From contig DASTYZ010000037.1 of assembly GCA_035764545.1 (NCBI GenBank), positions 119-64,118 on the forward strand: a stretch of 64,000 nucleotides of DNA. Direction: 5' to 3'. The notes under the pieces were generated by a model that was given only the letters and a program-made list of their open reading frames with translations, was not told the origin of the DNA and ran no database searches. The DNA comes from Solirubrobacterales bacterium (lineage in GTDB: Bacteria > Actinomycetota > Thermoleophilia > Solirubrobacterales > 70-9). The translations under genes were made by a program, and so were the position numbers. Each line of letters begins with the position of its first letter. Position 1 is the first letter of the stretch. Shown one piece after another: positions 8,149 to 56,216 of the stretch.

Positions 8149-8222
8149 GATGCAAAATTGCTTACGTCCCATCAGCGTAGGACTCGCTGGGCCCACTCGA
8201 TCCTTGACAAAAAGAGAAGCGG

Positions 8223-9542
8223 TCAGTCAGCAAAGCCTTTGGTCCGGCGAAGCTCCTTTTCAGCACGGCGCAGGCTTGCGGGCAATATTTGCACCATCTC
8301 CCAGCGGTAGTCGTGCTCCTCATCAGGAAAATCGACTTTCAGCGCGTCGGCAAGGTCAGTCAACCTCGGCTGTGCTGCGAGGTCGGACCGCATCTCTCGC
8401 ATGACGGCAGAAGTGGCTTCTTTTGCCCTAACCGCGTCTGCTGCCGAATAGCTCTGCCCTTCGTGTACGGCTCCATTTCGCATCCGATAGGTCGTTGACC
8501 ACCAGGTGCCCCAAACCGATCCCTGGTCGTCCACCCTGATTTTCCTATTCAGCACTTTCGCGAGATGAACCGTCACGCACTCTTTGAGCCAGGCAGCAGA
8601 TGCCGCCTCGCGCTCCTCCGCCGACCAACCCAAGCGTTCGGCTCCCTCGCGGACGGTCGTGCTGACAAGCCCCTCAACGGCCATTCCGAGGGTGATGATG
8701 CAGCGGGTTGCCTCTCCCAACAGCGAGTACGCCCAAGCATCCTCTACGAAGCTAAAGAACTGCAGATATGGCTCGGCACCCTTATTCGCAGCGCTAACCA
8801 TGGCGCTCGCTTGCCAAGCAAAATCCGGGGGAGGTTCATCTTCAACCGCGACATCAAGAAGCTCGGGGCGGATTGACACGACGCAGTGAATCGGCCATTG
8901 ACCGGGCTCCTCTCCGGGCGATACGTGGTCGATGATGATCGGCAGGAGCGGTGGTAGTTGGCCTGCTGAGAGTCGACCGATTCGCCAGTCCCGCGAGGTC
9001 ATACTCAGCGCGGTCAGAAAGCGGTTCAGGTCCGCGAGGCAAACGAAGAACTGAGATCGAAGCCAGTCCAGCTCTTCCTCTCGGCCGGTCTCGTCTGGAA
9101 TTTCGGACGGCGGAATGAAGGACGAGAGGGAAACCACTGAGCGCGTCAGCATTACCCCTCGTCGATCAGCACTCCGTAGACCCCGCCGTCTGGTCAGTCG
9201 CTCACGCCAGTTCAGAAATGGCAGGACTTTGTCGCCAAACGCCTCATCTGCGGCTCGAAGCGGGGGAATGGACTTGACTCTGGCTCGCCGAAATCGGATC
9301 TGAGTTCCCGGCATCAAGTTTTCGGGAATTTCTTTGGCGCCGGGCCATTCCAGGAGCGTCCAAAGATCCTCTCCCGCCCAACCCTCCCACGCGGGTGATC
9401 GCTCCAGAAGTGGGGCCATCTGCCAGTTATTGGGAACCGGAAGGGCGAAGGGAAGCTCAAGGATGTAAGTGATGACCCTCGCTTGAAGGCGTGCGTCCCC
9501 CACACACCTGATGCTGCCGAAGCCGCCGGATGAGTCGAGCAA
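8223..9542 (-). CDS. orphan hypothetical protein with C-terminal HEPN-like RNxxxH motif (candidate RNase or abortive-infection protein)
   Basis: 439-aa ORF, the only long ORF in the lower-GC interval. The motif YRMRNGAVHEG at 8463-8486 fits the HEPN pattern Rx4-6H with Asn after Arg. The start codon is uncertain (TTG at 9542). Confidence 0.55.
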   Translation of the reverse strand: MLDSSGGFGSIRCVGDARLQARVITYILELPFALPVPNNWQMAPLLERSPAWEGWAGEDLWTLLEWPGAKEIPENLMPGTQIRFRRARVKSIPPLRAADEAFGDKVLPFLNWRERLTRRRGLRSADRRGVMLTRSVVSLSSFIPPSEIPDETGREEELDWLRSQFFVCLADLNRFLTALSMTSRDWRIGRLSAGQLPPLLPIIIDHVSPGEEPGQWPIHCVVSIRPELLDVAVEDEPPPDFAWQASAMVSAANKGAEPYLQFFSFVEDAWAYSLLGEATRCIITLGMAVEGLVSTTVREGAERLGWSAEEREAASAAWLKECVTVHLAKVLNRKIRVDDQGSVWGTWWSTTYRMRNGAVHEGQSYSAADAVRAKEATSAVMREMRSDLAAQPRLTDLADALKVDFPDEEHDYRWEMVQILPASLRRAEKELRRTKGFAD

Positions 9543-9682
9543 CCCCTGCGTTGGTCCTCTGATCCGTCACAAATTCGCATGGCACCCGATTCGCTCGCCA
9601 TCACTGGCATGTTTCCCTCAGGGCCGCGCGCCAGTTCGACTGTAGCTGTCGGGGTCAGGCGAAGCTACAGTTCGGATCGCCC

Positions 9683-9807
9683 GGGAAGGGGGGCACCCTC
9701 CGTACGAGCGGCGTTAGCTTTTCGCACCTGCCGGAACTAGGACAGCTGTAGCCGTCTCTGGGCGAAAGCCCAGCGAAGGTAGGTGGTGCCCCCCTTCCCC
9801 CAGCGCC
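9683..9807. repeat. structured hairpin repeat, copy 2 (right inverted repeat of the cassette)
   Basis: Outer stem is GGGAAGGGGGGCACC ... GGTGCCCCCCTTCCC and inner stem GCGAAA/TTTCGC. The reverse complement aligns block for block with copy 1 (GGCGCTGGG, CTACCTTCGCTGGG, GTGCGAAnAGCTAACGCCGCTCGTACG). Confidence 0.75.
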
Positions 9808-41403: not shown

Positions 41404-42912
41404 TCAGTCAGCGTATGCGACGGCGCCGCCGCGACGGGGGTCGCCGCCGCCGCTCAGCTCGCCCGTCGCGGGATCGCGGGAGACCGCTTGGACGCCCCCG
41501 AAGAAAAGGTTCAGCGAAGGCCAGCGGGCGACCTCCCAGCCGCGCTGCTCGAGGCGGTCGAGCGCCTCGTGGTCGACCCCCTTCTCCGCCTGGACGACGC
41601 CCTGCTCGAAGTGCAGGCGCGGCGCCTCCACCGCGGCCGCCACCGGGTAGCCCTGCTCGACCGCCCGCACCACCGTCTGCAGGATCGCCGAGCGGATCCG
41701 GTTGGAGCCAGCGCTGCCGAGCGCGAGGACGATCTCGCCGTCGCGGAGGACAACGGTCGGCGCCATCATCGAGGGGACGCGCCGTCCCGGCGTGATCAGG
41801 TGGAACCCGGCCGGGTTGAGGTCCTCCTCGCCGAGCATGTTGTTGAGGATGACGCCGGTGCCGGGAACCAGCACGCCGGAGCCCGAGCCGTTGGAGCAGG
41901 TGACGGTGGCGCAGTTGCCGTCGCCATCGAGGACGGAGATGTGGGTCGTCGAGCCGAGCAGGTCGGCGGCGGCGAGGTCGAGGCCGATCGGGTCGAGGAA
42001 GCCGACCTCCATCCCCTCCTTGTAGAGCGCCTCGGCGAAGGCGAGGTCGCGGCGGTCGTTGGCGGCCTCCATCGCCAGGACCAGCTGCTCGGGCCCGCTG
42101 CTGGAGCCGAAGCGCTCGAGCAGCCCAAGGGTGTAGGCGATCAGGATCCCCCCCGAGGACGGCGGCGGGTTGGTGAGGACTTCGGTGCCCCGGAACGGGG
42201 TGTCGATCGGCTTGCGCTCGATCGCCTCGTAGGAGGCGAGGTCGCCGGCGCCGATCAAGCCACCGTGGCCAACGACGAAGTCGCTGATCGCCGCCGCCAC
42301 CTCGCCGCGGTAGAAGGTCTCGGCCCCCTCGGCGCCATAGCGTTCCAGCGCTTCGGCAAGTTCAGGGAAACGAAAGACGTCCCCCTCCGCCAGCGGCCGA
42401 CCTTGCGGCGCGTAGAGCTCGCGGGTGCCCGGCATCCGCTCGTGGATCGGGGCAAGGATGTCGAGGATGTAGGCCTGGCCGCGATTGATCGGCGCCCCCT
42501 CGCGGGCAAGGCGCACCCCCGGTCCCACCAGCTCAGAGAGGGAGCGGGACCCGAACCGCTCGAGCGCATGGGCGAGGCCGGCGGCGGTTCCGGGCACTCC
42601 GCAGGAGGCCGGCCCGACATAGAACGTCTGCGTCGTCTCGGCGTCGAAGCGGACCGGGACCGGGACCAGCTCGGTCCCGCGCTCGACCCCGTCGAGCCCG
42701 GGGGCGGCGACGAAGAAGTCGATCAGGGTCGTCTCGCCACCCCGGTGAACCATCATGTGGCCGCCAGCCCCGAAGCCGGTCAGCGGGCTCTCGACCGCGA
42801 ACGAGGCGAGTACCGCGCAGACGGCGGCGTCGACCGCGTTGCCGCCGTCGCGGAGGACCTCGGCGCCTGCCTCGGCGGTAAGCGGATGGCCGGCTGCGAC
42901 GACCCCTCGCAT
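41404..42912 (-). CDS. ggt: gamma-glutamyltransferase
   Basis: Start trimmed to MRGVVAAGHPLT (the upstream 58 codons are Arg/Pro noise overlapping ftsZ). The autoprocessing Thr context is GSTTHISVLD. Confidence 0.9.
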   Translation of the reverse strand: MRGVVAAGHPLTAEAGAEVLRDGGNAVDAAVCAVLASFAVESPLTGFGAGGHMMVHRGGETTLIDFFVAAPGLDGVERGTELVPVPVRFDAETTQTFYVGPASCGVPGTAAGLAHALERFGSRSLSELVGPGVRLAREGAPINRGQAYILDILAPIHERMPGTRELYAPQGRPLAEGDVFRFPELAEALERYGAEGAETFYRGEVAAAISDFVVGHGGLIGAGDLASYEAIERKPIDTPFRGTEVLTNPPPSSGGILIAYTLGLLERFGSSSGPEQLVLAMEAANDRRDLAFAEALYKEGMEVGFLDPIGLDLAAADLLGSTTHISVLDGDGNCATVTCSNGSGSGVLVPGTGVILNNMLGEEDLNPAGFHLITPGRRVPSMMAPTVVLRDGEIVLALGSAGSNRIRSAILQTVVRAVEQGYPVAAAVEAPRLHFEQGVVQAEKGVDHEALDRLEQRGWEVARWPSLNLFFGGVQAVSRDPATGELSGGGDPRRGGAVAYAD

Positions 42913-42923
42913 GGGGCCGCGGC

Positions 42924-44450
42924 TCAGCCCGGGAGGAACTCTGGGACGTCGATGCCGAGCTCGCGGTCGCCGCCACGACCGCGGCGGCCGGACTCGGCCT
43001 CTTTGGTGCGGCGGATCGTCGGCTCGGCGGCGCGACGCTGCGGCTGGGCGCGGCCGTCGAAGCGGGTGGCGACGACGGTGACCCAAATCTGCTCGGAGAG
43101 CTCCTCGTCGACGTTGGCGCCGAAGATGATGTTGGCGTCGGGGTGGGCGGCCTCGCCGACCACCTTCGCGGCCTCGGAGACCTCGACCAGCGAGAGGTCA
43201 GCGCCGCCGGTGATCGAGAGCAGGATCGAGCGGGCGCCCTCCATCGAGGTCTCCAGCAGCGGCGAGGAGATCGCTTTTTCGGCTGCGAGGACGGCGCGGT
43301 CGTCGCCGTAGGCCATGCCGATCCCGAGCAGGGCCCGGCCGGCTTCGGACATGATCGAGCGGACGTCGGCGAAATCGAGGTTGATCACCGCGGGCAGGGT
43401 GACCAGGTCGGAGATGCCCTGGACGCCCTGGCGGAGGACGTCGTCGGCGACCTTGAAGGCCTCGACCATCGAGGTCTGCTGGTCGAGGACGTCGAGCAGG
43501 CGGTCGTTGGGGACGACGATCAAGGTGTCGACCTCGGCGGCGAGCTCCTCGATGCCCTTGTTCGCCTGGTCGCCGCGACGGCTGCCCTCGAAGCTGAACG
43601 GCTTGGTGACTATGCCGACGGTCAAGGCGCCGACCTCGCGGGCGAGGCGGGCGACGACCGGGGCGGCGCCCGAGCCGGTACCGCCGCCGGCACCGGCGGC
43701 GACGAAGACCATGTCGGAGCCCTTCAGCAGGCGCTTGATCTTGTCCTGCTCCTCGAAGGCGGAGCGGTGGCCGACCTCGGGGTCGGCGCCGGCGCCAAGG
43801 CCGCGCGTCTGCTCGTCGCCGATGTGGACGGTGACGTCGGCGACGCAGAGCTGCAGCGACTGAAGATCGGTGTTGACGGCCATGAACTCGACCCCGGGGA
43901 TGCGGGCGTCGACCATCCGGTTGACCGCGTTGACCCCGGCCCCACCGACGCCGACGACCTTGATCACCGGCTGATGCGGCTCCCCACTACCCGGCGGCTC
44001 ATACTCAGGCTCTTCCCGCCCGTAGCGCGGGTTTTCCGGCTGAAACTGCTCGCGCCGAGGAGCAGGCTCCTCACTGAAAACCCTCTTCAGCCGCTCAGGC
44101 GGAGACTCACTGGAAGACTCAATATTCCGCTCCGACCCCACAACCTCTTGGTCGTAAAGAGCGGGCGCCTCCCCCTGCTGAAGCGGAATTTCCGCCTGAG
44201 CAGCATCCTCAGCGGCATCTGCCGCGGGTGGCGACGATGGGCCGCTCCCGCCAGTTGGCGGGAGGGGACTATCGGAGACAGGACCCGCGGCCCGATCCCC
44301 TTCGTCCTGCACCTTTTTTGCCTCGGCCGGATCGTCCCGCCCGTACCGAGGCGCCTCCGGCGGATCAATCGGAGCGTCCTCGCTAGTGGACCGAAACAGG
44401 TCGGACAGCGGCCCCTCGCGCATGCTTGCGCGCTTGTTACGCCGAGCCAT
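42924..44450 (-). CDS. ftsZ: cell-division GTPase FtsZ with about 160-aa N-terminal extension
   Basis: Tubulin signature [11 protein letters not shown], plus NTDLQSL and the C-terminal peptide IDVPEFL. The start at 44450 is supported by AAGGAGG 9 nt upstream. Confidence 0.92.
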
Positions 44451-45492
44451 GGGACAGAACCTCCTTCGCCAGCTCCCGGTAGTAGTTCGCTGCGCTCGAG
44501 CCTGAATCGTACTTGAGCACGGAGGCGCCTTTGACGGGAGCCTCGGCGAACTTGATCGCCTTTTTGATCCGGGACTGGAAAACAAGGTCGCCGAAGTTCT
44601 CCTCGAGGATCTCCACCGCCTCCTTGGCGTGGATCGTCCGCGAGTCGAGCATCGTCGGCAGGATCCCCTCGATCTTGACGTCGGGGTTGAGGTTCTCCTG
44701 GATCATCCGCAGCGTGTTCTGAAGCTGGACGAGGCCGCGCATCGAGAGGTACTCGCACTGGACCGGGACGATCACCTTGTTCGCCGCGGTGAGGGCGTTG
44801 ATCGTCAGCAGGCCGAGGCTCGGCGGCGTGTCGATGCAGACGAAGTCGTAATCGCCGGCGACCTCTTTCAGCGCTTTCTCGAGCGAGCGCTCGCGGCCGA
44901 TCTTGGTGCTCATCGCGATCTCGGCACCGGCCAGATCGATCGAGGCAACGGCGACGTCGATCTCCCGTTTGACGATGATCTCGGAGATCGGGATGTCGTT
45001 GACGAGGACGTCGTAGAGGCTTTTCTCGACCTTGTCGGGGTCGATCCCCTGGCTCATCGTCAGGTTCCCCTGCGGGTCGAGGTCGATGCAGAGCACGCGG
45101 TAGCCGGACTCAGCAAACGCCACAGCCAAGTTCAGCGTCGTAGTCGTCTTCGCGACCCCACCCTTCTGGTTGGCGAAAGCAATGACCTCAGCAGTCTTAA
45201 CCGGCGTCTCGTCCACCGCCTCCTTCTCAGCCAGGAAGTCAAGTCGAGTAGGCGCAATCAGATCAATCGCCTTCATCCGAGCATCGCCCCCATCCACCTC
45301 AGGGTCTTCAGCATTAAGAGCGGGCTCCTCAGCAACGTCCTCGGACGGCTCCTCCTCAACCACCACCTCGGTTGGCGGGAGGGGACCATCGGAGACAGGA
45401 CCCGTGGCCCAACTCCCTTGGTCCCTATCCTCGTCCCTGATCTCGTCCCTCAGCGGCACAGCCTCTTCCATCTCCTGGAGCTCGTCGACCAT
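44437..45492 (-). CDS. ParA/MinD-superfamily ATPase with acidic N-terminal extension
   Basis: Deviant Walker [13 protein letters not shown]. Start set to MVDELQEM (AGGAGGAG 6 nt upstream); the track start at 45555 is the alternative. The stop overlaps the ftsZ start by 14 nt. No parB is adjacent. Confidence 0.85.
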
Positions 45493-45554
45493 AGGCGACT
45501 CCTCCTGGATCTCGACGGGGGCAGGCTTCGGCTTCTTGCGGCTTAAAAATCCCA

Positions 45555-46541
45555 TTGCGCGGATATTCGTATGGGACCCCGCTTTTCCTGCCGGCCCCCG
45601 AAATTGCTAGGAATCAGCCAATCCCCGATCTCCTCGACAAGCGACTCGTAATCGTCACCGGCAAGGGTGGCGTCGGCAAGACGACGGTCGCGGTGGCCCT
45701 CGGCCTGCGCGCGGCGAGCGAAGGCAAGCGGACGATCGTCTGCGAGGTCTCCTCGCAGGAGAACGCCTCGCGGATGTTCGAGCACGCCTCCGTCGGCTTC
45801 CACGAGGTGGAAATGGAGGAGAATCTCTGGTCGATCTCGATCGACCCCGACGAGTCGATGCGCGAGTACGTGCTGCTGCAGCTGAAGGTACGGGCGATGC
45901 GGGACATGCTCTTCCGCAGCCGCATCTTCAACTACCTCGCCGCGGCGACCCCGGGCCTGAAGGAGCTGGTGACGATCGGCAAGATCTGGGAGCTGGCGCA
46001 GCTCGACCGCAAGGTCAAGAGCGGCCGTAAGTACGACTTGGTGATCGTCGACGCGCCGGCGACCGGCCACGGCGTCGGCTTCCTGCAGACGCCGCGCACC
46101 TTCGCCTCGATCGCCCGCGTCGGCCCGATCCACTCCCAGGCCCAGCAGCTCGACCGCTTCATCACCGACCACAAAAACACCGGCACTGCGATCGTCGCCC
46201 TGCCGGAGGAGATGCCGGTCAACGAGTCGATGGCGCTGGAGAAGGACCTGCGCGACGAGGTCGGGGTCGCGGTCGATCGCGTCTACCTCAACGGGCTCTA
46301 CCCGGAGCGGTTCAAGAAAGAAGAGGCGGAGAAGCTGTCGGCACTGGCCGAGAGCGAGAACGGCGCCAGCCGGGCGGCGGCGCGGGCGGCGCTCTCGGAG
46401 TTCGGTCGCGCCCGCTCCCAGCGCCAGCAGCTGGCGCGGCTGAAGCGCGGCGTCGAGGCGCCGGTGAAATCGCTGCCCTTCCTCTTCGAGCCCGAGCTCG
46501 ACGTCGAGGCGGCGCGCAAGCTGGCGGGGAAGCTCGGCTGA
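45555..46541 (+). CDS. ArsA/Get3-like P-loop ATPase
   Basis: 328 aa with VTGKGGVGKTTVAVALG. The only in-frame start candidate is TTG with no SD, so the start is uncertain. Confidence 0.75.
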   Translation: MRGYSYGTPLFLPAPEIARNQPIPDLLDKRLVIVTGKGGVGKTTVAVALGLRAASEGKRTIVCEVSSQENASRMFEHASVGFHEVEMEENLWSISIDPDESMREYVLLQLKVRAMRDMLFRSRIFNYLAAATPGLKELVTIGKIWELAQLDRKVKSGRKYDLVIVDAPATGHGVGFLQTPRTFASIARVGPIHSQAQQLDRFITDHKNTGTAIVALPEEMPVNESMALEKDLRDEVGVAVDRVYLNGLYPERFKKEEAEKLSALAESENGASRAAARAALSEFGRARSQRQQLARLKRGVEAPVKSLPFLFEPELDVEAARKLAGKLG

Positions 46542-47692
46542 TGGCCTCGCTGAACGAAGTCCTCGACGGCAAGTCGATCTGCATCTGCGCCGGCTCCGGC
46601 GGGGTCGGCAAGACGACCACCTCGGCCGCGATCGCGACCGGGATGGCGGCGCAGGGGCTGAAAGTCTGCGTGCTGACGATCGACCCGGCGAAGCGGCTGG
46701 CCGACTCGCTCGGGCTGGAGGAGCTCGGCAACGAAGCGCGCCGGGTCGACCCCGCCCTGATCGAGGAGCAGGGGGTCGAGATGAAGGGCGAGCTGTGGGC
46801 GATGATGCTCGACGCGAAGGCGACCTTCGACGAGCTGATCGCGCGCCAGGCGCCCGACGAGGAGTCCCGCGATCGGGTCCTCAACAACCGCATCTACCAG
46901 CAGATCTCCAGCGCCCTCGCCGGCTCGCAGGAGTACATGGCGATGGAGAAGCTCTTCGAGCTGCACACCGAAGGCGGCTTCGACCTGCTCGTCCTCGACA
47001 CGCCGCCGACCCGCAACGCCCTCGACTTCCTCGACGCGCCGAAACGGCTGACCCAGTTCATCGAGGGCAAATCCCTGCGCGTCTTCATGAAGCCGACCGG
47101 ACTGGCGGCGAAGGTGACCGGCCGCGGCGTCTCCGTCGTCCTCGGCGTCTTCAAGCGCCTCGTCGGCTTCGACCTGATCGCCGACCTGGCCGAGTTCTTC
47201 AACGCCTTCAGCAGCATGGTCGACGGCTTCCAGGCCCGGGCAAAACGCGTCAACAAACTGCTCGCCGACCCGGAGACCTGCTTCCTCGTCGTCTGCGGGC
47301 CCCAGGGAGAGCCGATCGACGAGGCCGTCTACTTCCACCGCAAACTGGTCGAGGCCAAGCTCCCCTTCGGCGGCGTCATAGTCAACAAGGTCCACTACCC
47401 CGCCGACGAGCTCGAGGCCGAGGTGGACGACCTCCCCTCCACACTCACCGAGAAGCTAGGCGACCAGAACCTCGCCAAGCGCGTGGCAGACAACTTCGCC
47501 GACTACCAGGCCCTAGCCGAGCGCGACGCCAACAACATCGACCACCTAGCCGGCGAGCTACGCACCAGCTGCGTGATCCGCGTCCCCTACCTAGACGAGG
47601 ACGTCCACGACCTCCGCGGCCTCACCGAGATCGACCGCTACCTCTTCGCGACGGCGGAGGAGCGGGTCGAGATGGCGGCGGGGCGGGCTTAA
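46541..47692 (+). CDS. ArsA/Get3-like P-loop ATPase
   Basis: 383 aa with CAGSGGVGKTTTSAAIA and DTPPTRNALDFL. The ATG overlaps the upstream stop (ATGA-type junction). Confidence 0.8.
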   Translation: MASLNEVLDGKSICICAGSGGVGKTTTSAAIATGMAAQGLKVCVLTIDPAKRLADSLGLEELGNEARRVDPALIEEQGVEMKGELWAMMLDAKATFDELIARQAPDEESRDRVLNNRIYQQISSALAGSQEYMAMEKLFELHTEGGFDLLVLDTPPTRNALDFLDAPKRLTQFIEGKSLRVFMKPTGLAAKVTGRGVSVVLGVFKRLVGFDLIADLAEFFNAFSSMVDGFQARAKRVNKLLADPETCFLVVCGPQGEPIDEAVYFHRKLVEAKLPFGGVIVNKVHYPADELEAEVDDLPSTLTEKLGDQNLAKRVADNFADYQALAERDANNIDHLAGELRTSCVIRVPYLDEDVHDLRGLTEIDRYLFATAEERVEMAAGRA

Positions 47693-49965: not shown

Positions 49966-50364
49966 CTAAGCCTCGCGGCTGTGTCGAAGCAAAGTGGCAA
50001 CTTCTTCTGCATCCTCGCGATGAAAGGAGATTGGCCAGTATGGCCTGCCGTCAACAACTAGATGGCCGCCGCACCACCGCGAGGCGACGGCCTCAAGTGA
50101 CGCATCTGCTTCTACGGTCGCCACTGATGCTCGAAAAATCCCAGGGCGCTTGAGAACGAGAATCAAGAGCTTTTTCGCCGTTACAACAACTACGTACTCG
50201 CGGCGGAGCATCAAGAAAGGGTTGAACAATCCGGAAGCGCGAGTTCGCCCTCGTCTTGCGATAAAAAATCCCTTCAGTTCTTCTGGTGCGAGTTGCTTGA
50301 AGAGGTTCTCCCTGAGCCGCGTATAACGCAGACCACCTTTTTGCCAATCGCTCGCCATGCGCAT
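49966..50364 (-). CDS. candidate immunity protein for the RHS C-terminal toxin
   Basis: 132-aa ORF starting 3 nt after the RHS stop on the same strand, with locally lower G+C. Has no TM segments and no recognised family. The call is positional. Confidence 0.5.
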   Translation of the reverse strand: MRMASDWQKGGLRYTRLRENLFKQLAPEELKGFFIARRGRTRASGLFNPFLMLRREYVVVVTAKKLLILVLKRPGIFRASVATVEADASLEAVASRWCGGHLVVDGRPYWPISFHREDAEEVATLLRHSREA

Positions 50365-50367
50365 TTC

Positions 50368-53300
50368 CTATTCGAGGAGTATCGCCGCGCCCGTCGCTCC
50401 GACGCAGCCGGCGCCGCCGCCAACCGCTCCGCCAACGGGGATCCCCTCTGGGCCGAAAAACGCTCCTACGACAGCCCCGCCGGGGGCGCCAGATTTAGCC
50501 CCTTCTCGACATTCTTGCCAGTGCGCCCCAGCGAAGTTATAGATGGACTCCAAGCGGTCTCCTTGCTTCTTCCAGAAATCTCTGCTCCGGTCTGCAACCC
50601 AGCCCCGGCCGGGAGCAGTCCAGTCCCAGGCCCCATCAGCCGCTGAACCAGCTGATGACGTGGCCGCATCTACCCCTTCTTCAGCGATGCCAAGGCCGCC
50701 TTCGAATTCTTCACCCACCGTCACGAGATCATCTGGTCCGACACAGGCGCCAAGTACACAGACATCGCGTCCGTCGAGGTCATAGAGGTTCATCGGGTTA
50801 TCCCACGCGTAGGGATAACGGTTCGTGGTGATGCCCAGGCCGATATGTCCCAGTACCGGGTCCTCGGCGAGGAAGCCACCGAGTTCCGGCGCATAGGAGC
50901 GCGCGCCCATCTGAACCAGGCCAGTAGCGGGGTCGGCGCGTCGCTGCTGAGCACCGAGCCAGCCCATCTCGAGGCCCGGACCGCCGAGTTGAGCGCCCCA
51001 AGGATCGAAGGTCTGTCGAGATGAGACTTCACCGGCTCCATCGAGCACTGCGGTGATATCTCCGTGGGCATCCGAGAGCGGGAAGCTAGTTGCTTCACCA
51101 GAGCGCTGCTCCATTAGCCCCTCCGGCCCCTGCACGTAGCTCATGATCGGCTGACCTTCGCCATCGGTATCTACTATTGGGAGGTCGGAGAGATCGCCGT
51201 AGTGGCTTAGCCGAATTGCCGAGCCGTCGTCTCTCGAGGCCTGCCGGCCCAGGGCGTCGAACGTGTAGGTGACGGGCTGAGTCCCGTCATCAATGTCCTC
51301 CAGCTCGTCGAGGGGACTCCATCCGTAGGTAGTGGCCTGTTCTCCGCTGTCAACTTCGATCAGTCGCCCCGCAGCGTCGTAGTCATAGGTTCTGCCGTCC
51401 GAGGCGCTGGTCAGCTGATTAAGCGCGTTGAAGCCGTAGGTGACCCCATCCGCTTCGGTGCGATTGCCCGCCGCGTCGTAGCCGTAGCTGGTCGAGCCTT
51501 CGCCGGGCGGGTCAAATTGGGTTAGGCGGTTCAAGGCGTCGTAGTCATAGGTGGTTTCCAGCGAGAGGCGGTTGACCTGGCCGATCCGATTTCCGTAAGG
51601 GTCGTAGTCGTATTCGAGCGATTCGAGGATCGCTTCTTCGGGATCGAGCGAGGTGATCGCGGCGACCCGGCCCCCATCGTCATAGACCTTCGTGGTCGTA
51701 ACCCCGTTCGGCAGTTCGACGCTGGTCAGGTTGCCCTCCGCGTCGTAGCCGAATTCCGAGACTTTGCTCTGCGGGTCGATGAGCGAGGTCATCCGGTTGA
51801 GGCTGTCGTAGCCGTAGGTGAGCGTGCCGCGGCCGTCGATCTGTTTGACCAAGTTCCCGCGCGAATCGTAGGCGCGGGAGACGGTCTGACCACGGTCGTC
51901 GTCGATCGATTCGACACGGCCGTCGTCGTCGTAGCCAACTTCGATTTCGTCGCCCTGGGCGTCCAGGGCTCCCGTCATCCGGTTGGCCGCGTCGTAACCG
52001 AAGTCCCGCAGCACCGTTTCGCCATCAACGATCTGCTGCAACCGGTCGGCGGCGTCGTAGGAGAAGCTCAGGGTTCCCTCCCCCGTATTTCGGGTCAACC
52101 GGTTGCCGACGCCGTCATAGGTGAAGCTCGTCGTCTTTTCCAGCGACTGAGCGATCTCGGTGATCCGGCCCAGCTCGTCGTATTCGAAAGAGGTCGTGTT
52201 TTCGCGCGGGTCAGTGAAAGAGGTGAGGTTGCCGGCGGCGTCGTAGCCGTAGCTCGTTTTGGTTTCGAGCGGCTCCTCGACGGCGGTCATCCTGTCGAGC
52301 AGGTCGTATTCGTAGATGGTCGCGTTCTCACGCGGTTCCACCATTTCGTCCCGGTTGCCGCGGGCGTCGTAGTCGAACTCCCAGTCGCCACCTTCAGGGG
52401 CGACGACTTCAGTCAGCTGATTCGCCAGGTCATAGCCGTAGGTGGTTTCCTTGCCGCGGCGGTCCGTGAGGGCGATGCGGTTGAGGTTGCCGTCGTAATC
52501 GATTTCCGTGCGGCCTTCGAGCGGGTCGACGAAGGCGGTCGGACGCTCCATCGCGTTGCGCTCGACTTTCCATAGTCCGCTGGCCGGGTCTTTGACCTGG
52601 GTCAGCATGCCGTTCCCGTCGTAGCTGTATTCGGTTTTGTTGCCCTCAGGCGTCGTCACCGAGATCAGCTCAGCGAGGGCGTTGCGGCCGTAGATCTCCG
52701 GTTCCAGCCCCGGAGCGGTCTTCGAGGTCAGCTGGTTGCGGGTGTTGTAGGTGAAGGCGGTCGTGTGTGCGAGGGGGTCTTTGGCGCTGAGGCGGTTGCC
52801 CCGCCCGTCGTAGGTGAAGGCGGTGGTGTGTTCGTTTGGATCGGTGATCGTTAGCGGCAGGCCGGCGGCGTCATGGGTGAAGGTCGTCTCGCCTTCGGCA
52901 GGGTCGGTGACCTTGACGAGGTCGTTGTCGCCGTCCCATTCGTAGGTCCAGGCCTCGCCACGCTCGTCGGTGAAGCTCGTGAGCCGGTTGAGGCCGTCGT
53001 ACGCGTAGCTGCGTTCCCCTTCCTCGGGATCGACTACCGAGGTCAAATTCCCAGCACCGTCGTAACCGAAAGTCCAAACAGCCCCTCCCGGCTTGACGAT
53101 TTCGTCGATGTTGCCGGCGGCGTCGTAGCTGGTCGTCGACGTGTGGCCAAGCTGGTCTTTCTCGGAGACCGTCCGCATCTGGCTGTCGAAGCCGTAGGTG
53201 ATCTCCCCACCCTCGGGTTCGGTGACGACGGTCTCGCCTTCTTTGTATTCGAGGGTCCAGAGGTTTTCGAGACCATCGCGCTGCTCGACCACCCGACCCT

Positions 53301-56079
53301 GGGCGTCGTAGACGTTTTTGAGGATGACGTTGCCGCGTGGATCTTTGATCGTTTTCAGGCGGTGGGCGGAGTCGTAGGTGTATTCAGTGACGCCGCCGAG
53401 GGCGTCGGTGACCGTCCCAAGGTCGCCGGCGGTGGTGTATCCGTATTTGACTTCGCGGCCGGTCGAGTCTTTGACTGCGGTGATGTGGTTGGAAGAGTCG
53501 TAGGAGAAGGTGAGGGTCTGCGCCGACGGGTCGGTGATGGTCGCTAGCCGACCGCTGGCGTTATAGCCATAGGTCGTTTTCAGGCCGTGGTCGTCGGTAA
53601 TCGATGCGATCCGGCCGCTGGCGTCGAAGCTGTAGACGGTTCCCCGGAGCGTCGTCAGCCTGAATTTCCCTTCGACCTTGGTAAGCATGTCGGTCACGCC
53701 TGAAGGGGCGTGGTAGCTGCCTTCAGAGTTCCCGTACAAATCCTGGCGTCCGTCCTGGCGCACCACGAGCACACCCCCTGAGGGGAGCTCGGAGACGTTG
53801 GCAAGTCCGGTTTGCGACCAACCCGGCCCGAGGCCGGTGTCGGCGCTCGAGCCGGAGCTGTAAGCACGGCTGAAGGCAAGAGGCACAGCGCTCTTATTAG
53901 AGAGGACGAGATCCCGGTGAGCGTAGGCGAGCTGACCGGTTGCGAGGCTGACCGGGTCGGCGCCTTCTCCGCATTGGGAATCCTCGCCGCGGCAGTGACC
54001 TGAGGGTTCGGGAAGCTGCACCGCCGGTTTCCAGTCGACATTGGCGCTTGCGGTATCGCCGCATCCGGCGGGCTTTGGCCCACTCCCACATCCCCAGTCG
54101 TTGTTCTTCGCGGCCAGGGTTCCCGTGCCGTTGTAGAAGACGCCGTAGCTGTTGGCGCGGAAAAGGTTCCTTTCAATCGTTGGGGAGCCCGATTCGAGGA
54201 CCTTGATGGCATAGCTGGCGTTCTTGCGAAACAGCGAGTTCTTGATCGTGGGATTGGTGGCTTTGATTTCGATCGCTCCCGAGCCATTGCCGCCGTTGGC
54301 AAGTTCGGCATATTCGATCGAGCCGTTGCTCCCTTTTTCGAACTTGATCCCGCCCCACTCGCCGGCAAGATTTTCGTTGAATCCCGTCAGTCGCACGAGA
54401 TCTTCGGCGGTCCCCTCGACGTTGAGCGTCCCTTTGACCGTGAATGCTGGTCTCAGGAGATGCACACCATGGGCAATTTTCAGCGTCACCCCCGTCGGGA
54501 TGGTCACTCCGATCAAACGCACTCTGGTGCCGCCGTCATTCCAGGTTGAGGATTGGGCGACCGTGCCGCTGACCAGGATGTAGTTGGAAGCGTTGCCAAT
54601 CAGCGTGTTTTCGGTGATGTTGCCCGGAACATCGTCCCCGGAATAGCTGAGTCCGGTGCCTTCAGTGCCCACCACCGAGTTGCCGGCGAGAACTTTGGCG
54701 GTAACCGTCGAGCCGCTGAAGGTTTCTATTTGGATTCCCTGCTTGCCGCCTTCGATGTAGTTGCCGTGGATGTTGATTTCGCCGGATTTCCCGGTGCCAG
54801 CGACATACCAGATGACATTGCGGGCGACCCCTGCGTTGATGAAGACGTTGTCTGCGATCTCGGGGGCGCCTCCTTCGGGGATCCTGATTCCGTAGCCGCC
54901 GCTGTCGCGGATCGTCGAGTTGGTGATCCTTGGGGAGGACGCCTCGATCTGGACCGAGCCGTTGTTGTACTGGGAGTAGCCCGAGTCGATGCCGCCGCCG
55001 TTGGCGAGTTCGACGTGATCGAGGACCGAGGCGCCGCTGCCCGGCTTGAAGAAGATCGCCTTCCATTCGCCGACTTTCGCTTCATACTTGCCGGTGAAGC
55101 GGACAGGATTTTCGGCCGTGCCTTCCGCGAGGAGGGTGCCTTGGACAGTCATCGTCGGCTGCAGCAGGTGGACCCCAGGCGAAATTTTCAGCGTCACGCC
55201 CGCAGGCACCGTCACTCCGCTCAAGAGGACCCTGCTCCCTCCGTCGTTCCAGGTCGAGGAGTGGGCGACCGTGCCACCGACCTGGATGTAGTTGGAGGCG
55301 TTTGCGATCAGCGTGTTTTCGGTGATGTTCCCTGGGATGTCGGGACCGGAGAACAGGATTCCGGTTGATTCGGTCCCTACGATCGTGTTGCCGCTCAGAA
55401 CTTTGGCGTTCACCGTTGAACCGCTGAAGATTTCAATTTGAATTCCCTCTTTGCCTCCTTCGATGTAGTTGTCGTGGATGTTGATTTCGCCGGACTTCCC
55501 GCTGCCGGCGATGTAGAAGATGGGATTGTGAGCGACGGCCGCATTAATGAAAGCGTTCCCGGCGATCTCCGGACTGCCGCCTTCAGGGATCCTTATGCCG
55601 TAGCCGCCACTGTCGCGGATCGTCGAGTTGGTGATCCTTGGGGAGGACGCCTCGATCTGGACCGAGCCGTTGTTGTAAGTGAACGAGTTGGAGTCCATTC
55701 CACCGCCGTTGGCGAGTTCGACGTGGTCGAGGACCGAGGCCCCACTGCCCGGTTTGAAGAAAATCGCCTTCCATTCACCGACGCCTTTTTCTTTGGATCC
55801 GGTGAAGCGGACTGGATTTTCTGCCGTGCCTTCGGCGAGGAGGGTGCCTTGAACCGTCAGCGAGCCGACGGTGAGATGCGTTCCGGGTTCGACTTTGACG
55901 GTCACCCCCGATGCAATCGTTGGGCTACCCGTGTAGGGGCTGCCAGCGGGAGTGAGGGTCGTGTTTGCGGAGATCGTGGCGGGGAGGGCCGTTGCCCCGG
56001 CCGAACTTGGCCCAAGGAGTGCCGAGATCAACAGAATGGCGCCGAGCAGGCACCCCGCGTGCTTTGCCATCCCTGCCAT
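50368..56079 (-). CDS. secreted RHS/YD-repeat polymorphic toxin (WapA-like architecture)
   Basis: 1903 aa with Sec signal MAGMAKHAGCLLGAILLISALLGPSSAGA. The N-terminus carries about 2.5 copies of a 236-aa parallel-beta-helix-like module, followed by dozens of YD repeats (for example YGYDAAGNLTS). The RHS core end is RYPYAWDNPMNLYDLDGR, followed by a 132-aa C-terminal domain. GGGGAGAGGAG lies 3 nt upstream of the ATG. Confidence 0.92.
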   Translation of the reverse strand: MAGMAKHAGCLLGAILLISALLGPSSAGATALPATISANTTLTPAGSPYTGSPTIASGVTVKVEPGTHLTVGSLTVQGTLLAEGTAENPVRFTGSKEKGVGEWKAIFFKPGSGASVLDHVELANGGGMDSNSFTYNNGSVQIEASSPRITNSTIRDSGGYGIRIPEGGSPEIAGNAFINAAVAHNPIFYIAGSGKSGEINIHDNYIEGGKEGIQIEIFSGSTVNAKVLSGNTIVGTESTGILFSGPDIPGNITENTLIANASNYIQVGGTVAHSSTWNDGGSRVLLSGVTVPAGVTLKISPGVHLLQPTMTVQGTLLAEGTAENPVRFTGKYEAKVGEWKAIFFKPGSGASVLDHVELANGGGIDSGYSQYNNGSVQIEASSPRITNSTIRDSGGYGIRIPEGGAPEIADNVFINAGVARNVIWYVAGTGKSGEINIHGNYIEGGKQGIQIETFSGSTVTAKVLAGNSVVGTEGTGLSYSGDDVPGNITENTLIGNASNYILVSGTVAQSSTWNDGGTRVRLIGVTIPTGVTLKIAHGVHLLRPAFTVKGTLNVEGTAEDLVRLTGFNENLAGEWGGIKFEKGSNGSIEYAELANGGNGSGAIEIKATNPTIKNSLFRKNASYAIKVLESGSPTIERNLFRANSYGVFYNGTGTLAAKNNDWGCGSGPKPAGCGDTASANVDWKPAVQLPEPSGHCRGEDSQCGEGADPVSLATGQLAYAHRDLVLSNKSAVPLAFSRAYSSGSSADTGLGPGWSQTGLANVSELPSGGVLVVRQDGRQDLYGNSEGSYHAPSGVTDMLTKVEGKFRLTTLRGTVYSFDASGRIASITDDHGLKTTYGYNASGRLATITDPSAQTLTFSYDSSNHITAVKDSTGREVKYGYTTAGDLGTVTDALGGVTEYTYDSAHRLKTIKDPRGNVILKNVYDAQGRVVEQRDGLENLWTLEYKEGETVVTEPEGGEITYGFDSQMRTVSEKDQLGHTSTTSYDAAGNIDEIVKPGGAVWTFGYDGAGNLTSVVDPEEGERSYAYDGLNRLTSFTDERGEAWTYEWDGDNDLVKVTDPAEGETTFTHDAAGLPLTITDPNEHTTAFTYDGRGNRLSAKDPLAHTTAFTYNTRNQLTSKTAPGLEPEIYGRNALAELISVTTPEGNKTEYSYDGNGMLTQVKDPASGLWKVERNAMERPTAFVDPLEGRTEIDYDGNLNRIALTDRRGKETTYGYDLANQLTEVVAPEGGDWEFDYDARGNRDEMVEPRENATIYEYDLLDRMTAVEEPLETKTSYGYDAAGNLTSFTDPRENTTSFEYDELGRITEIAQSLEKTTSFTYDGVGNRLTRNTGEGTLSFSYDAADRLQQIVDGETVLRDFGYDAANRMTGALDAQGDEIEVGYDDDGRVESIDDDRGQTVSRAYDSRGNLVKQIDGRGTLTYGYDSLNRMTSLIDPQSKVSEFGYDAEGNLTSVELPNGVTTTKVYDDGGRVAAITSLDPEEAILESLEYDYDPYGNRIGQVNRLSLETTYDYDALNRLTQFDPPGEGSTSYGYDAAGNRTEADGVTYGFNALNQLTSASDGRTYDYDAAGRLIEVDSGEQATTYGWSPLDELEDIDDGTQPVTYTFDALGRQASRDDGSAIRLSHYGDLSDLPIVDTDGEGQPIMSYVQGPEGLMEQRSGEATSFPLSDAHGDITAVLDGAGEVSSRQTFDPWGAQLGGPGLEMGWLGAQQRRADPATGLVQMGARSYAPELGGFLAEDPVLGHIGLGITTNRYPYAWDNPMNLYDLDGRDVCVLGACVGPDDLVTVGEEFEGGLGIAEEGVDAATSSAGSAADGAWDWTAPGRGWVADRSRDFWKKQGDRLESIYNFAGAHWQECREGAKSGAPGGAVVGAFFGPEGIPVGGAVGGGAGCVGATGAAILLE
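54442..55857 (-). repeat. in-frame 708-nt tandem duplication inside the RHS gene
   Basis: Protein residues 75-310 and 311-546 are near-identical (TVQGTLLAEGTAENPVRFTG...). The DNA matches with a 708-nt offset, for example CCGGTTTGAAGAAAATCGCCTTCCATTC against CCGGCTTGAAGAAGATCGCCTTCCATTC. A third, diverged partial unit follows, down to about 54039. Confidence 0.85.
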
Positions 56080-56216
56080 GAACTCCTCTCCCCTTTGGGA
56101 TTAGGAGGAACTCACGAGGGTGGGCTACTCCTGCTGGTCAGCTGGATGGTCCCCACTCAAATAGAAAAAGTCCATACCGAATTATTTAGAGCACGAACTT
56201 CTTGCGGTTAGAGCGG

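Follow-up and report, generated by a model that had tools for sequence, protein, structure and literature searches.

The locus examined here raises a question that is easily stated. In a 64,000-nt stretch of a Solirubrobacterales contig (DASTYZ010000037.1, positions 119 to 64,118; hereafter the window), a gene for a ParA-like ATPase overlaps ftsZ, and the N-terminal extensions of the two proteins both carry the peptide GPVSD[S/G]PLPPT, encoded by nearly the same DNA. Is this a binding motif through which both proteins dock on one partner, as the original prediction proposed, or is it a property of the DNA itself? We found that the shared block is part of a structured, hairpin-forming repeat of about 80-110 nt. 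We consider it roughly 80% probable that the two blocks are copies of a dispersed family of palindromic repeats, similar in kind to repetitive extragenic palindromic (REP) sequences and Rickettsia palindromic elements (RPEs), that has colonised DNA for disordered protein segments. As far as literature searches show, this family of Solirubrobacterales-type soil bacteria has not been described before; searches of the literature on FtsZ and ParA in Thermoleophilia and on the literal repeat string returned nothing relevant.

The shared block and the repeat that contains it

A repeat search of the window recovered the block twice, at 44254-44307 and 45371-45424, with 89% identity over 54 nt and as direct repeats set 1117 nt apart, in good agreement with the near-identical block of about 55 nt first reported. 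A 32-nt core with one degenerate position has exactly two matches in the 64 kb, and as none of 100 shuffles gave a match (0 expected) a chance origin was rejected. It had also been claimed that both copies are read in the same frame and sit in a long acidic extension ahead of the conserved core, and both points hold. Each copy is in the frame of its own gene and upstream of the Pfam domains (Tubulin from aa 163; AAA_31 from aa 123), and the extensions, both rich in Pro, Gly, Ser and Ala, contain 33 D+E against 19 K+R in FtsZ and 35 against 12 in the ParA-like protein. What needed revision is the extent of the block. The 54 nt are indeed shared, but the homologous unit is longer in ftsZ (Table 1) and the parA copy is a truncated remnant, so that the block as first seen is the portion that survives in both copies.

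The full unit is bounded by an outer helix whose halves, CCGCGGGT and ACCCGCGG, are exact reverse complements, with a core of CGGGT/ACCCG and 3-5 further pairs that covary. The helix encloses a long GC-rich hairpin whose sequence depends on the subfamily, and between the two lie unpaired nucleotides that do not vary, CCTGTC 5' of the hairpin and GCC(A) 3' of it. The flanks run ..CCGCGGGTCCTGTC on the left and CGCCACCCGCGG.AGA on the right. CCTGTC and GCCA(CCC) border the variable hairpin in essentially all of the 86 copies from parA and ftsZ that we aligned, and every one of these copies encloses a long GC-rich hairpin, with stems of 16-25 bp that start with G/C pairs. In one orientation and frame the repeat is free of stop codons and reads AGPV...[ST]PPA[GA]E, rich in Pro, Ser, Gly, Ala and Glu.

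A covariance model built from the 86 copies (R1) was used to scan the window, where its only matches were the copy in ftsZ and, weakly, the remnant in parA. The former is intact and folds with -53.5 kcal/mol on the plus strand (z -5.4) and -46 on the minus strand (z -4.45). The parA copy retains the left half of helix P1 (GCCACGGGT), CCTGTC, the 5' arm and the loop; its 3' arm and right P1 half are deleted and it shows no significant folding (z -1.8 and -1.1). A full-length ParA block peptide, nearly identical to the ftsZ version of the window, is found in orthologues such as P0141. Rfam 15 gave no match at E <= 5 in the region, and no match reached the gathering score in the window or in 18 loci with repeat copies.

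Constraint acts on nucleotides and pairing

To follow the block across species we fetched 80 species-representative loci with the ParA-like protein, 76 of which hold both genes intact. These 76 loci contain 48 block copies in parA and 44 in ftsZ, always in the same codon phase, and when the ParA extension DNA is compared with the FtsZ extension DNA of the same genome a stretch of 80-126 nt is shared in about 25-30 genomes, with 83-98% identity and again in the same phase. The peptide is not what is kept. At least three unrelated types are found at the block, A (GPVSDSGLPLPGESSESSPPAG or similar), B (GPVAAGDPPPPARQEGVPPTAPPAG) and C (GPVAEDDSSSSQAAGEEPSSTPPAG), and in many species it is missing from one or both genes, so that the conservation of the motif in relatives, which had been suggested as a check, was not borne out. 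The codons at its borders are far more constant than the peptide between them: GGT is used in 90/92 copies vs 6.5% in the gene cores, CCT in 84/92 vs 2%, and CCA is the first Pro codon of the PPA flank in 55/73 tallied flank combinations vs 3% in the cores.

Base pairing is kept as well. From the 86 copies RNAalifold recovered the outer helix and the base of the hairpin with many compensatory double changes; for instance, one pair occurs as CG 39 times, as GC 29 times and as UA twice, and another as UA 33 times, as GC 20 times and as AU 19 times. Paired cells amount to 92% vs 76% in shuffles, and the covariation score is 0.348 vs 0.106 shuffled (0/500 reach 0.348), with slid partners giving at most 0.119. 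Judged from these alignments, what is conserved at the block is synonymous sites and base pairing, not the peptide. Fixed nucleotides and pairing around a changing peptide are the opposite of what a peptide motif predicts, and the idea of a docking motif is thus left without support.

Dispersal beyond parA and ftsZ

A scan of metagenomes with the pattern CGGGTCCTGTC-N40-68-CGCCACCCGC found more than 120 stretches, which is a lower bound. Almost all of the matches listed lie outside parA and ftsZ, in other contexts, and this overturned the possibility that the repeat is specific to these two genes. The distal pairs of the outer helix covary here too (gcgcg/cgcgc, gccgg/ccggc, gcggg/cccgc and tgttg/caaca). 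Copies that share a contig match exactly between about -5 and +8 of the pattern and show no relation further out. On contig L085 one copy lies in frame between two lipoyl domains of an E2/E1o fusion and an identical 77-nt copy, at an unlinked site, lies in a 93-nt intergenic gap. On L156 identical copies are found at 8194-8291 (+) and 9604-9701 (-), at the homologous loop of adjacent paralogous membrane-protein genes and in opposite orientation. Each of these two genes translates a different strand of the repeat; they are unannotated and by eye glycosyltransferase-like. Inverted dimers with 40-60 nt between the repeats occur on several contigs.

The matches listed on high-GC contigs comprise 113 copies, of which some 65 fall between genes, frequently no more than 40 nt from the end of one, and 42 lie inside open reading frames (ORFs), 24 of these in the same orientation and frame as the ftsZ copy. 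Intragenic copies occur in both orientations and in other frames. Pfam confirmed ten hosts (ribosomal proteins S9, S1, S2, S5, S17 and L19, together with NusA, RecG, DnaX and an E2 acyltransferase), and in all ten, as in FtsZ and ParA, the repeat is outside the Pfam domains. Repeats in essential genes such as ftsZ and several ribosomal protein genes persist, structurally intact, at orthologous sites in many species.

Two side observations concern these hosts. Long acidic Ala/Pro/Glu-rich tails are found on S1, S2, S5, S9, S17, L19 and NusA in the lineage, and the repeat lies inside the tails of housekeeping proteins on L081, L083, L088, L093, L104, L117, L128, L144, L145, L150, L162 and L192; such tails may derive in part from decayed repeat copies. 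On contigs with 38-55% GC (L087, L175, L134, L113, L089, L164/L115 and L107/L169) copies with the same termini, a few of them on contigs with 38-51% GC, appear as GC-rich islands in AT-rich intergenic DNA, and the copy on L107 follows closely on a 5S rRNA gene. These copies point to hosts outside Solirubrobacterales, or to horizontal transfer.

Likeness of the two copies within a genome

Both genes carry an intact copy in 29 species; in another 17 species parA alone does so, in 11 it is ftsZ alone, and the others have none. In the 29 species with both, the mean identity between the ParA and FtsZ copies of a genome is 0.818 vs 0.729±0.012 when copies are paired at random (0/2000). In 8-9 of the 29 genomes a copy has its partner as the nearest among the 85 others, and some genomes have different repeat subfamilies in parA and ftsZ. 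Such within-genome likeness is what one would expect if gene conversion now and then acts between these direct repeats, 1.1 kb from each other, or if copies are replaced by a subfamily active in the genome at present.

Could the whole arrangement then be a strain-specific accident of conversion or duplication between neighbouring genes, without wider meaning? Such an accident had been named at the outset as an outcome that would undo the docking idea, and the similarity of the copies within genomes and their spacing as direct repeats are what it would lead us to expect. However, the repeat is found at the same positions in dozens of species and its family in many other genes and contigs, and conversion accounts for the similarity of the copies but not for their origin. 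As a sole explanation it is refuted by the cross-species and metagenome data, and we find it scarcely credible.

Translation of the extensions and the docking motif

A binding peptide has to be translated, and the composition of the extensions gave some reason for doubt. Their GC content at third codon positions (GC3) is 0.5-0.8 (43970-44450 and 45190-45555, minus) vs 0.9-1.0 in the cores, and this low value made non-coding DNA a possibility to consider. Extension codon usage is unlike that of the cores in 76/76 species, with GGC making up 29% of Gly codons vs 73% and with GGT, GGA and GGG raised. In all 76 loci no stop interrupts the reading frame between the conserved N-terminus and the core, over extension lengths of 116-208 aa. 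Because the frame stays open across 76 species despite this variation in length, and because the N-termini are conserved, the non-coding alternative was rejected and we take both extensions to be translated. The same evidence argues against starts downstream of the block, which had been put forward as another way in which the docking idea could fail.

With the FtsZ extension as query, many FtsZ proteins of Solirubrobacterales were found to share it; every match listed was at most about 1.7 times the query length, and the "partial" FtsZ matches are probably an effect of the tool and not biology. The alignment contains invariant islands, including the MREGPLxDLFRST N-terminus, ERLKRVFxEEP and another conserved island directly ahead of the FtsZ core, with variable linkers between them, and in the orthologue alignment it is in a variable linker that the shared block is placed. 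Close homologues of the ParA-like protein number in the hundreds and share a conserved MGFLSRKKPKPAPVE start.

The proposal to be judged is that GPVSDxPLPPT is a short linear motif that docks the ParA-like ATPase and FtsZ on a common partner. That both copies are read in frame in extensions open across 76 species, and that the flanks AGPV and PPA recur, is compatible with it. But the flanks are fixed at synonymous sites, a constraint at the nucleotide level, and the peptide between them is replaced by unrelated sequences in orthologues; an intact copy is confined to ParA in some species and to FtsZ in others or absent altogether, and the ParA copy of the window itself is half deleted. The same DNA occurs in intergenic regions, antisense, in other frames and in at least 10 unrelated proteins, and two distant relatives (L201 and L202) have the operon without the repeat. 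With this turnover of the peptide and this dispersal of the DNA speaking against it, we regard a docking function as very improbable. The shared "motif" says nothing about docking between ParA and FtsZ, which removes an attractive mechanistic idea, and it can serve as a warning in motif hunting, where adjacent genes can encode the same peptide in disordered regions because both carry repeat DNA.

Three side observations bear on the extensions. The FtsZ extension has an internal repeat (family D1; 44008-44043, 44164-44199 and 44329-44364, minus), and the D1 peptides near the start of the extension and directly ahead of the core are conserved islands in the orthologues. The N-terminus of the ParA-like protein (45511-45555, minus) is conserved in 120 close homologues, and distant relatives are without such an extension; we take it to resemble the short basic/hydrophobic membrane-targeting tail of MinD, here placed N-terminally with an acidic linker after it. 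In L064 (6260-8602), which at 92% segment identity is the nearest relative, the parA-like gene and ftsZ show apparent frameshifts, which are probably assembly errors in a long-read metagenome-assembled genome.

Spread of a repeat or selection for a structure

If the repeat family is one that spreads, as we prefer to read the data, then an ancestor of these Solirubrobacterales would have gained one copy in the parA-like extension and another in the ftsZ extension, and gene conversion would have kept these direct repeats partly alike. Of the two copies in the genome of the window, that of ftsZ is intact and that of parA is without its 3' half. The stop-free reading rich in Pro, Ser, Gly, Ala and Glu would have been tolerated by a flexible tail. 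Copies may have spread by transposition and/or recombination, and the peptide of the repeat would then be a by-product and not a selected binding motif.

Several observations weigh against this account. We found no transposase and no target-site duplication, although the loci were not scanned for transposase genes. No clean empty site was found either, and the "empty" orthologues look like decayed copies. Over long divergence, compensatory changes have preserved the hairpin pairing at orthologous sites, which could reflect function. In a scan with R1 of 925 kb around parA and ftsZ in the 80 species only one copy was found outside the extensions, and across about 1 Mb, made up of the window and these loci, strict termini occur only in the two extensions. 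The repeat is therefore sparse in these genomes yet strikingly persistent at two orthologous sites, and for such a repeat retention by selection fits as well as selfish spread.

This leads to the alternative that the repeat is a selected cis-acting structure, either an RNA hairpin in the mRNA or in an antisense transcript or a structure of single-stranded DNA (ssDNA), which would coordinate how a set of growth-related genes is expressed or processed and whose spread would be secondary. The invariant unpaired nucleotides and covarying helices kept at orthologous sites are in its favor, as are the strong enrichment of confirmed hosts for translation, replication and division genes, the copy next to the 5S rRNA gene, and the finding that, among the matches listed, 24 of the 30 copies within 100 nt downstream of a gene 3' end are co-oriented with that gene. 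Folding is also asymmetric between strands: the strand complementary to GGGTCCTGTC is the more stable in 85/86 parA/ftsZ copies, by 6.8-10.2 kcal/mol where controls give 0.5-2.9, and in 101/123 metagenome copies among the matches listed. On the other hand, there is no Rfam match and the flanks, as read, show no conserved promoter or terminator beside the copies; copies lie in both orientations inside genes, and the repeat is lost or degraded in many orthologues and in the ParA copy of the window. The host enrichment may only mirror where long disordered tails exist, and template-switch mutation can maintain the pairing of palindromes where no selection acts. We consider such a selected structure unlikely, if worth keeping in view. 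A longer shot is that it is a selected nucleic-acid module, set into coding regions and 3' ends, through which one RNA- or DNA-binding factor, or an antisense or ribonuclease pathway, co-regulates division, translation and replication genes, the set being ftsZ, the parA-like gene, rpsA/B/E/I/Q, rplS, nusA, dnaX, a 2-oxoacid dehydrogenase gene and the ends of rRNA operons. If that were true, the ftsZ and parA-like copies would match through co-control at the level of nucleic acid and not of protein.

The more stable strand is richer in G·U (G·T) pairs. Of the specific structures tried, a cis-antisense RNA gene, which was prompted by the strand asymmetry, was retained only as one form of the selected structure considered above, with no conserved promoter or terminator in the flanks and both orientations elsewhere. 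Compared by eye, HDV-like, twister and hammerhead ribozymes do not fit in the order of their helices, and the AAC/GTT boxes of an integron attC site are absent.

Relation to known repeat families

The preferred account, a dispersed repeat that can enter coding DNA, has precedents, the closest of which are RPEs and tagged REPs. RPEs, as the work of Ogata et al. (2000, 2002) is summarised in PMC10969869, are palindromic repeats of about 100-150 bp that lie in frame in many unrelated genes. According to that summary the shared features are these: a dispersed palindrome of about 100 nt, in frame in many unrelated and often essential genes, that adds a peptide, occurs in intergenic DNA as well and is inserted outside folded domains, as in the ten Pfam-checked hosts and in FtsZ and ParA here. 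Against the same summary, our repeat differs in its hosts, free-living Solirubrobacterales of about 70% GC and not AT-rich obligate intracellular Alphaproteobacteria; in its anatomy, with a helix on the outside, an asymmetric internal loop that is invariant and a subfamily-variable hairpin; and in its preference for long acidic tails, where copies are kept at orthologous sites across many species. Given the composition, homology in sequence to RPEs is unlikely, and we file the repeat with them by kind and not by sequence family.

The REPs tagged with CGTC or TGTC have an unpaired tag, a CCA-type tail, head-to-head dimers (REPIN doublets), some intragenic copies and no dedicated transposase, and Actinobacteria are not among the phyla for which they are reported (PMC3733652). 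Our repeat has the tag and the tail, as a GC-rich hairpin follows an unpaired TGTC and precedes an unpaired tail containing CCA; inverted dimers were seen, and about 65 of the 113 listed copies on high-GC contigs are intergenic, although the 925 kb around parA and ftsZ yielded only 1 extra copy. Some copies are intragenic, and no dedicated transposase is evident. The stems of CGTC REPs, however, are 8-9 bp, start with A/T and close loops of 4-5 nt, compared with 16-25 bp, G/C starts and a second covarying helix here. Because of the long stem and the extra covarying outer helix the repeat falls outside the published definitions of tagged-REP families.

Like miniature transposable elements with inverted repeats (MITEs) such as Correia, ERIC and BOX (PMC10969869), the repeat is small, looks non-autonomous, has inverted termini and can form in-frame fusions. 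It differs in that no target-site duplication or parent insertion sequence was seen, in loci not scanned for transposase genes, and thus it is not a classical MITE. Its "terminal inverted repeat", moreover, covaries like an RNA or ssDNA helix and is not the fixed sequence that a transposase binds, and a MITE with target-site duplications was rejected on the grounds that the flanks are inverted and covarying and not direct duplications.

The repeat is then a new family within a known kind, the dispersed palindromic repeats able to reside in frame. Coding palindromic repeats, once held to be peculiar to Rickettsia, exist in free-living high-GC soil Actinomycetota, and these offer a system for asking how selfish or regulatory hairpins create and reshape disordered tails, how ribosomes handle hairpins of -40 to -60 kcal/mol inside frames, and what moves such repeats.

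A conserved parA-like and ftsZ operon

The link between the two genes does not depend on the block that they share. The pairing of the parA-like gene with ftsZ, whose presence in relatives the original prediction had asked about, is found in all 76 loci, with an overlap of 14 or 17 nt, and in two distant Thermoleophilia. In the latter (L201 and L202) a parA-like gene of 249-255 aa without the extension is followed by ftsZ with a 14-nt overlap and a Shine-Dalgarno sequence, which in L201 is an AAGGAGG identical to that of the window; their FtsZ starts with MREGPLAALFR and there is no repeat copy. In the window the operon is flanked by two divergently transcribed ArsA/Get3-like genes upstream and a gamma-glutamyltranspeptidase gene downstream (45555-47692 +; 41404-43086 -), the ArsA-like genes resembling BagA/BagB without reaching the cut-offs. 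L202 clearly has both of the ArsA-like genes and breaks off inside ftsZ, and L201 has one weak ArsA-like match and a weak gamma-glutamyltranspeptidase fragment. Since distant relatives have the same operon without the repeat, the parA-like gene and ftsZ form a translationally coupled operon that is conserved across Thermoleophilia independently of the repeat.

The N-terminal peptide of FtsZ is of more interest here than the block. It is basic, invariant or nearly so across Solirubrobacterales, and is kept in L201 (5001-5070), which is without the repeat, and by this pattern of conservation we judge it to be a real linear motif of the extension. ParB activates its ParA-type ATPase through an N-terminal peptide. 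The N-terminal peptide of PomX likewise activates the ParA/MinD ATPase PomZ (PMC7993993), and by analogy with PomX the basic conserved peptide, here on FtsZ, is a candidate contact for the ParA-like ATPase. As with MipZ, PomZ/PomXY, MinD and PldP (PMC7993993, PMC3989709, PMC4429545), a ParA/MinD ATPase is genetically tied to FtsZ; the difference is that here the ATPase gene is translationally coupled to ftsZ itself. No parB, minC/E or pomXY was found near the operon. Synteny is what points to a possible ParA-like/FtsZ positioning module, and together with the invariant FtsZ peptide the conserved operon would be a genuine lead for division-site control.

Features of the window

The coordinates of the operon and of the repeat copies are collected in Table 1.

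Table 1. Features of the parA-like and ftsZ region, in window coordinates
Feature	Position	Strand	Remarks
ftsZ	42924-44450	minus	508 aa: 160-aa N-terminal extension, Tubulin/FtsZ_C core, C-terminal DVPEFL peptide
Intact repeat copy, in frame in ftsZ extension	44212-44299	minus	covariance model R1 71 bits, E 2e-12
P1 helix of ftsZ copy	44283-44291 paired with 44221-44229	minus	
Unpaired CCTGTC of ftsZ copy	44277-44282	minus	
Hairpin of ftsZ copy	~44233-44276	minus	
Unpaired GCC of ftsZ copy	44230-44232	minus	
Conserved FtsZ N-terminal peptide	44382-44450	minus	M, R, G, P, L, L, F invariant in 37 aligned orthologues, including Thermoleophilaceae-like
Overlap of parA-like stop and ftsZ start (ATGGCTCGGCGTAA)	44437-44450	minus	14 nt, from sequence
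AAGGAGG, Shine-Dalgarno-like, for ftsZ, within parA-like 3' end	44460-44466	minus	9 nt upstream of ftsZ ATG
parA-like ATPase gene (ParA/MinD superfamily)	44437-45555	minus	372 aa, ~120-aa acidic N-terminal extension, deviant Walker
Truncated repeat copy in parA-like extension	45371-45408	minus	R1 22 bits, E 0.02, over 45323-45416

The overlap of the two genes and the strong Shine-Dalgarno sequence for ftsZ inside the parA-like 3' end were read in the sequence as they had been described. The FtsZ of the window has the Pfam domains Tubulin (aa 163-322) and FtsZ_C (aa 371-464) and the tubulin signature GGGTGSG, and it scores 413 bits against a cut-off of 295 for the NCBIfam equivalog TIGR00065, which identifies it as FtsZ. 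The parA-like protein matches AAA_31 (9.5e-62), CbiA and MipZ in Pfam and has the deviant Walker A KGGxxK[ST] and a ParA-type P-loop. It is below all NCBIfam equivalog cut-offs and hence is given no subfamily; from its sequence we class it as a generic member of the ParA/MinD superfamily.

The ParB signature GERRxRA is absent from every frame of the 64-kb window, consistent with the earlier statement that there is no parB, and so is a second FtsZ signature. No division and cell wall (dcw) genes were found among the 8 flanking genes examined with Pfam, and no Min or other division-site system was seen within the window. A region of about 6 kb at 50000-56200 has a GC content of 0.60-0.63 vs about 0.69, with no high-GC3 ORFs by a simple caller and no Rfam match, and may be foreign or unusual DNA.

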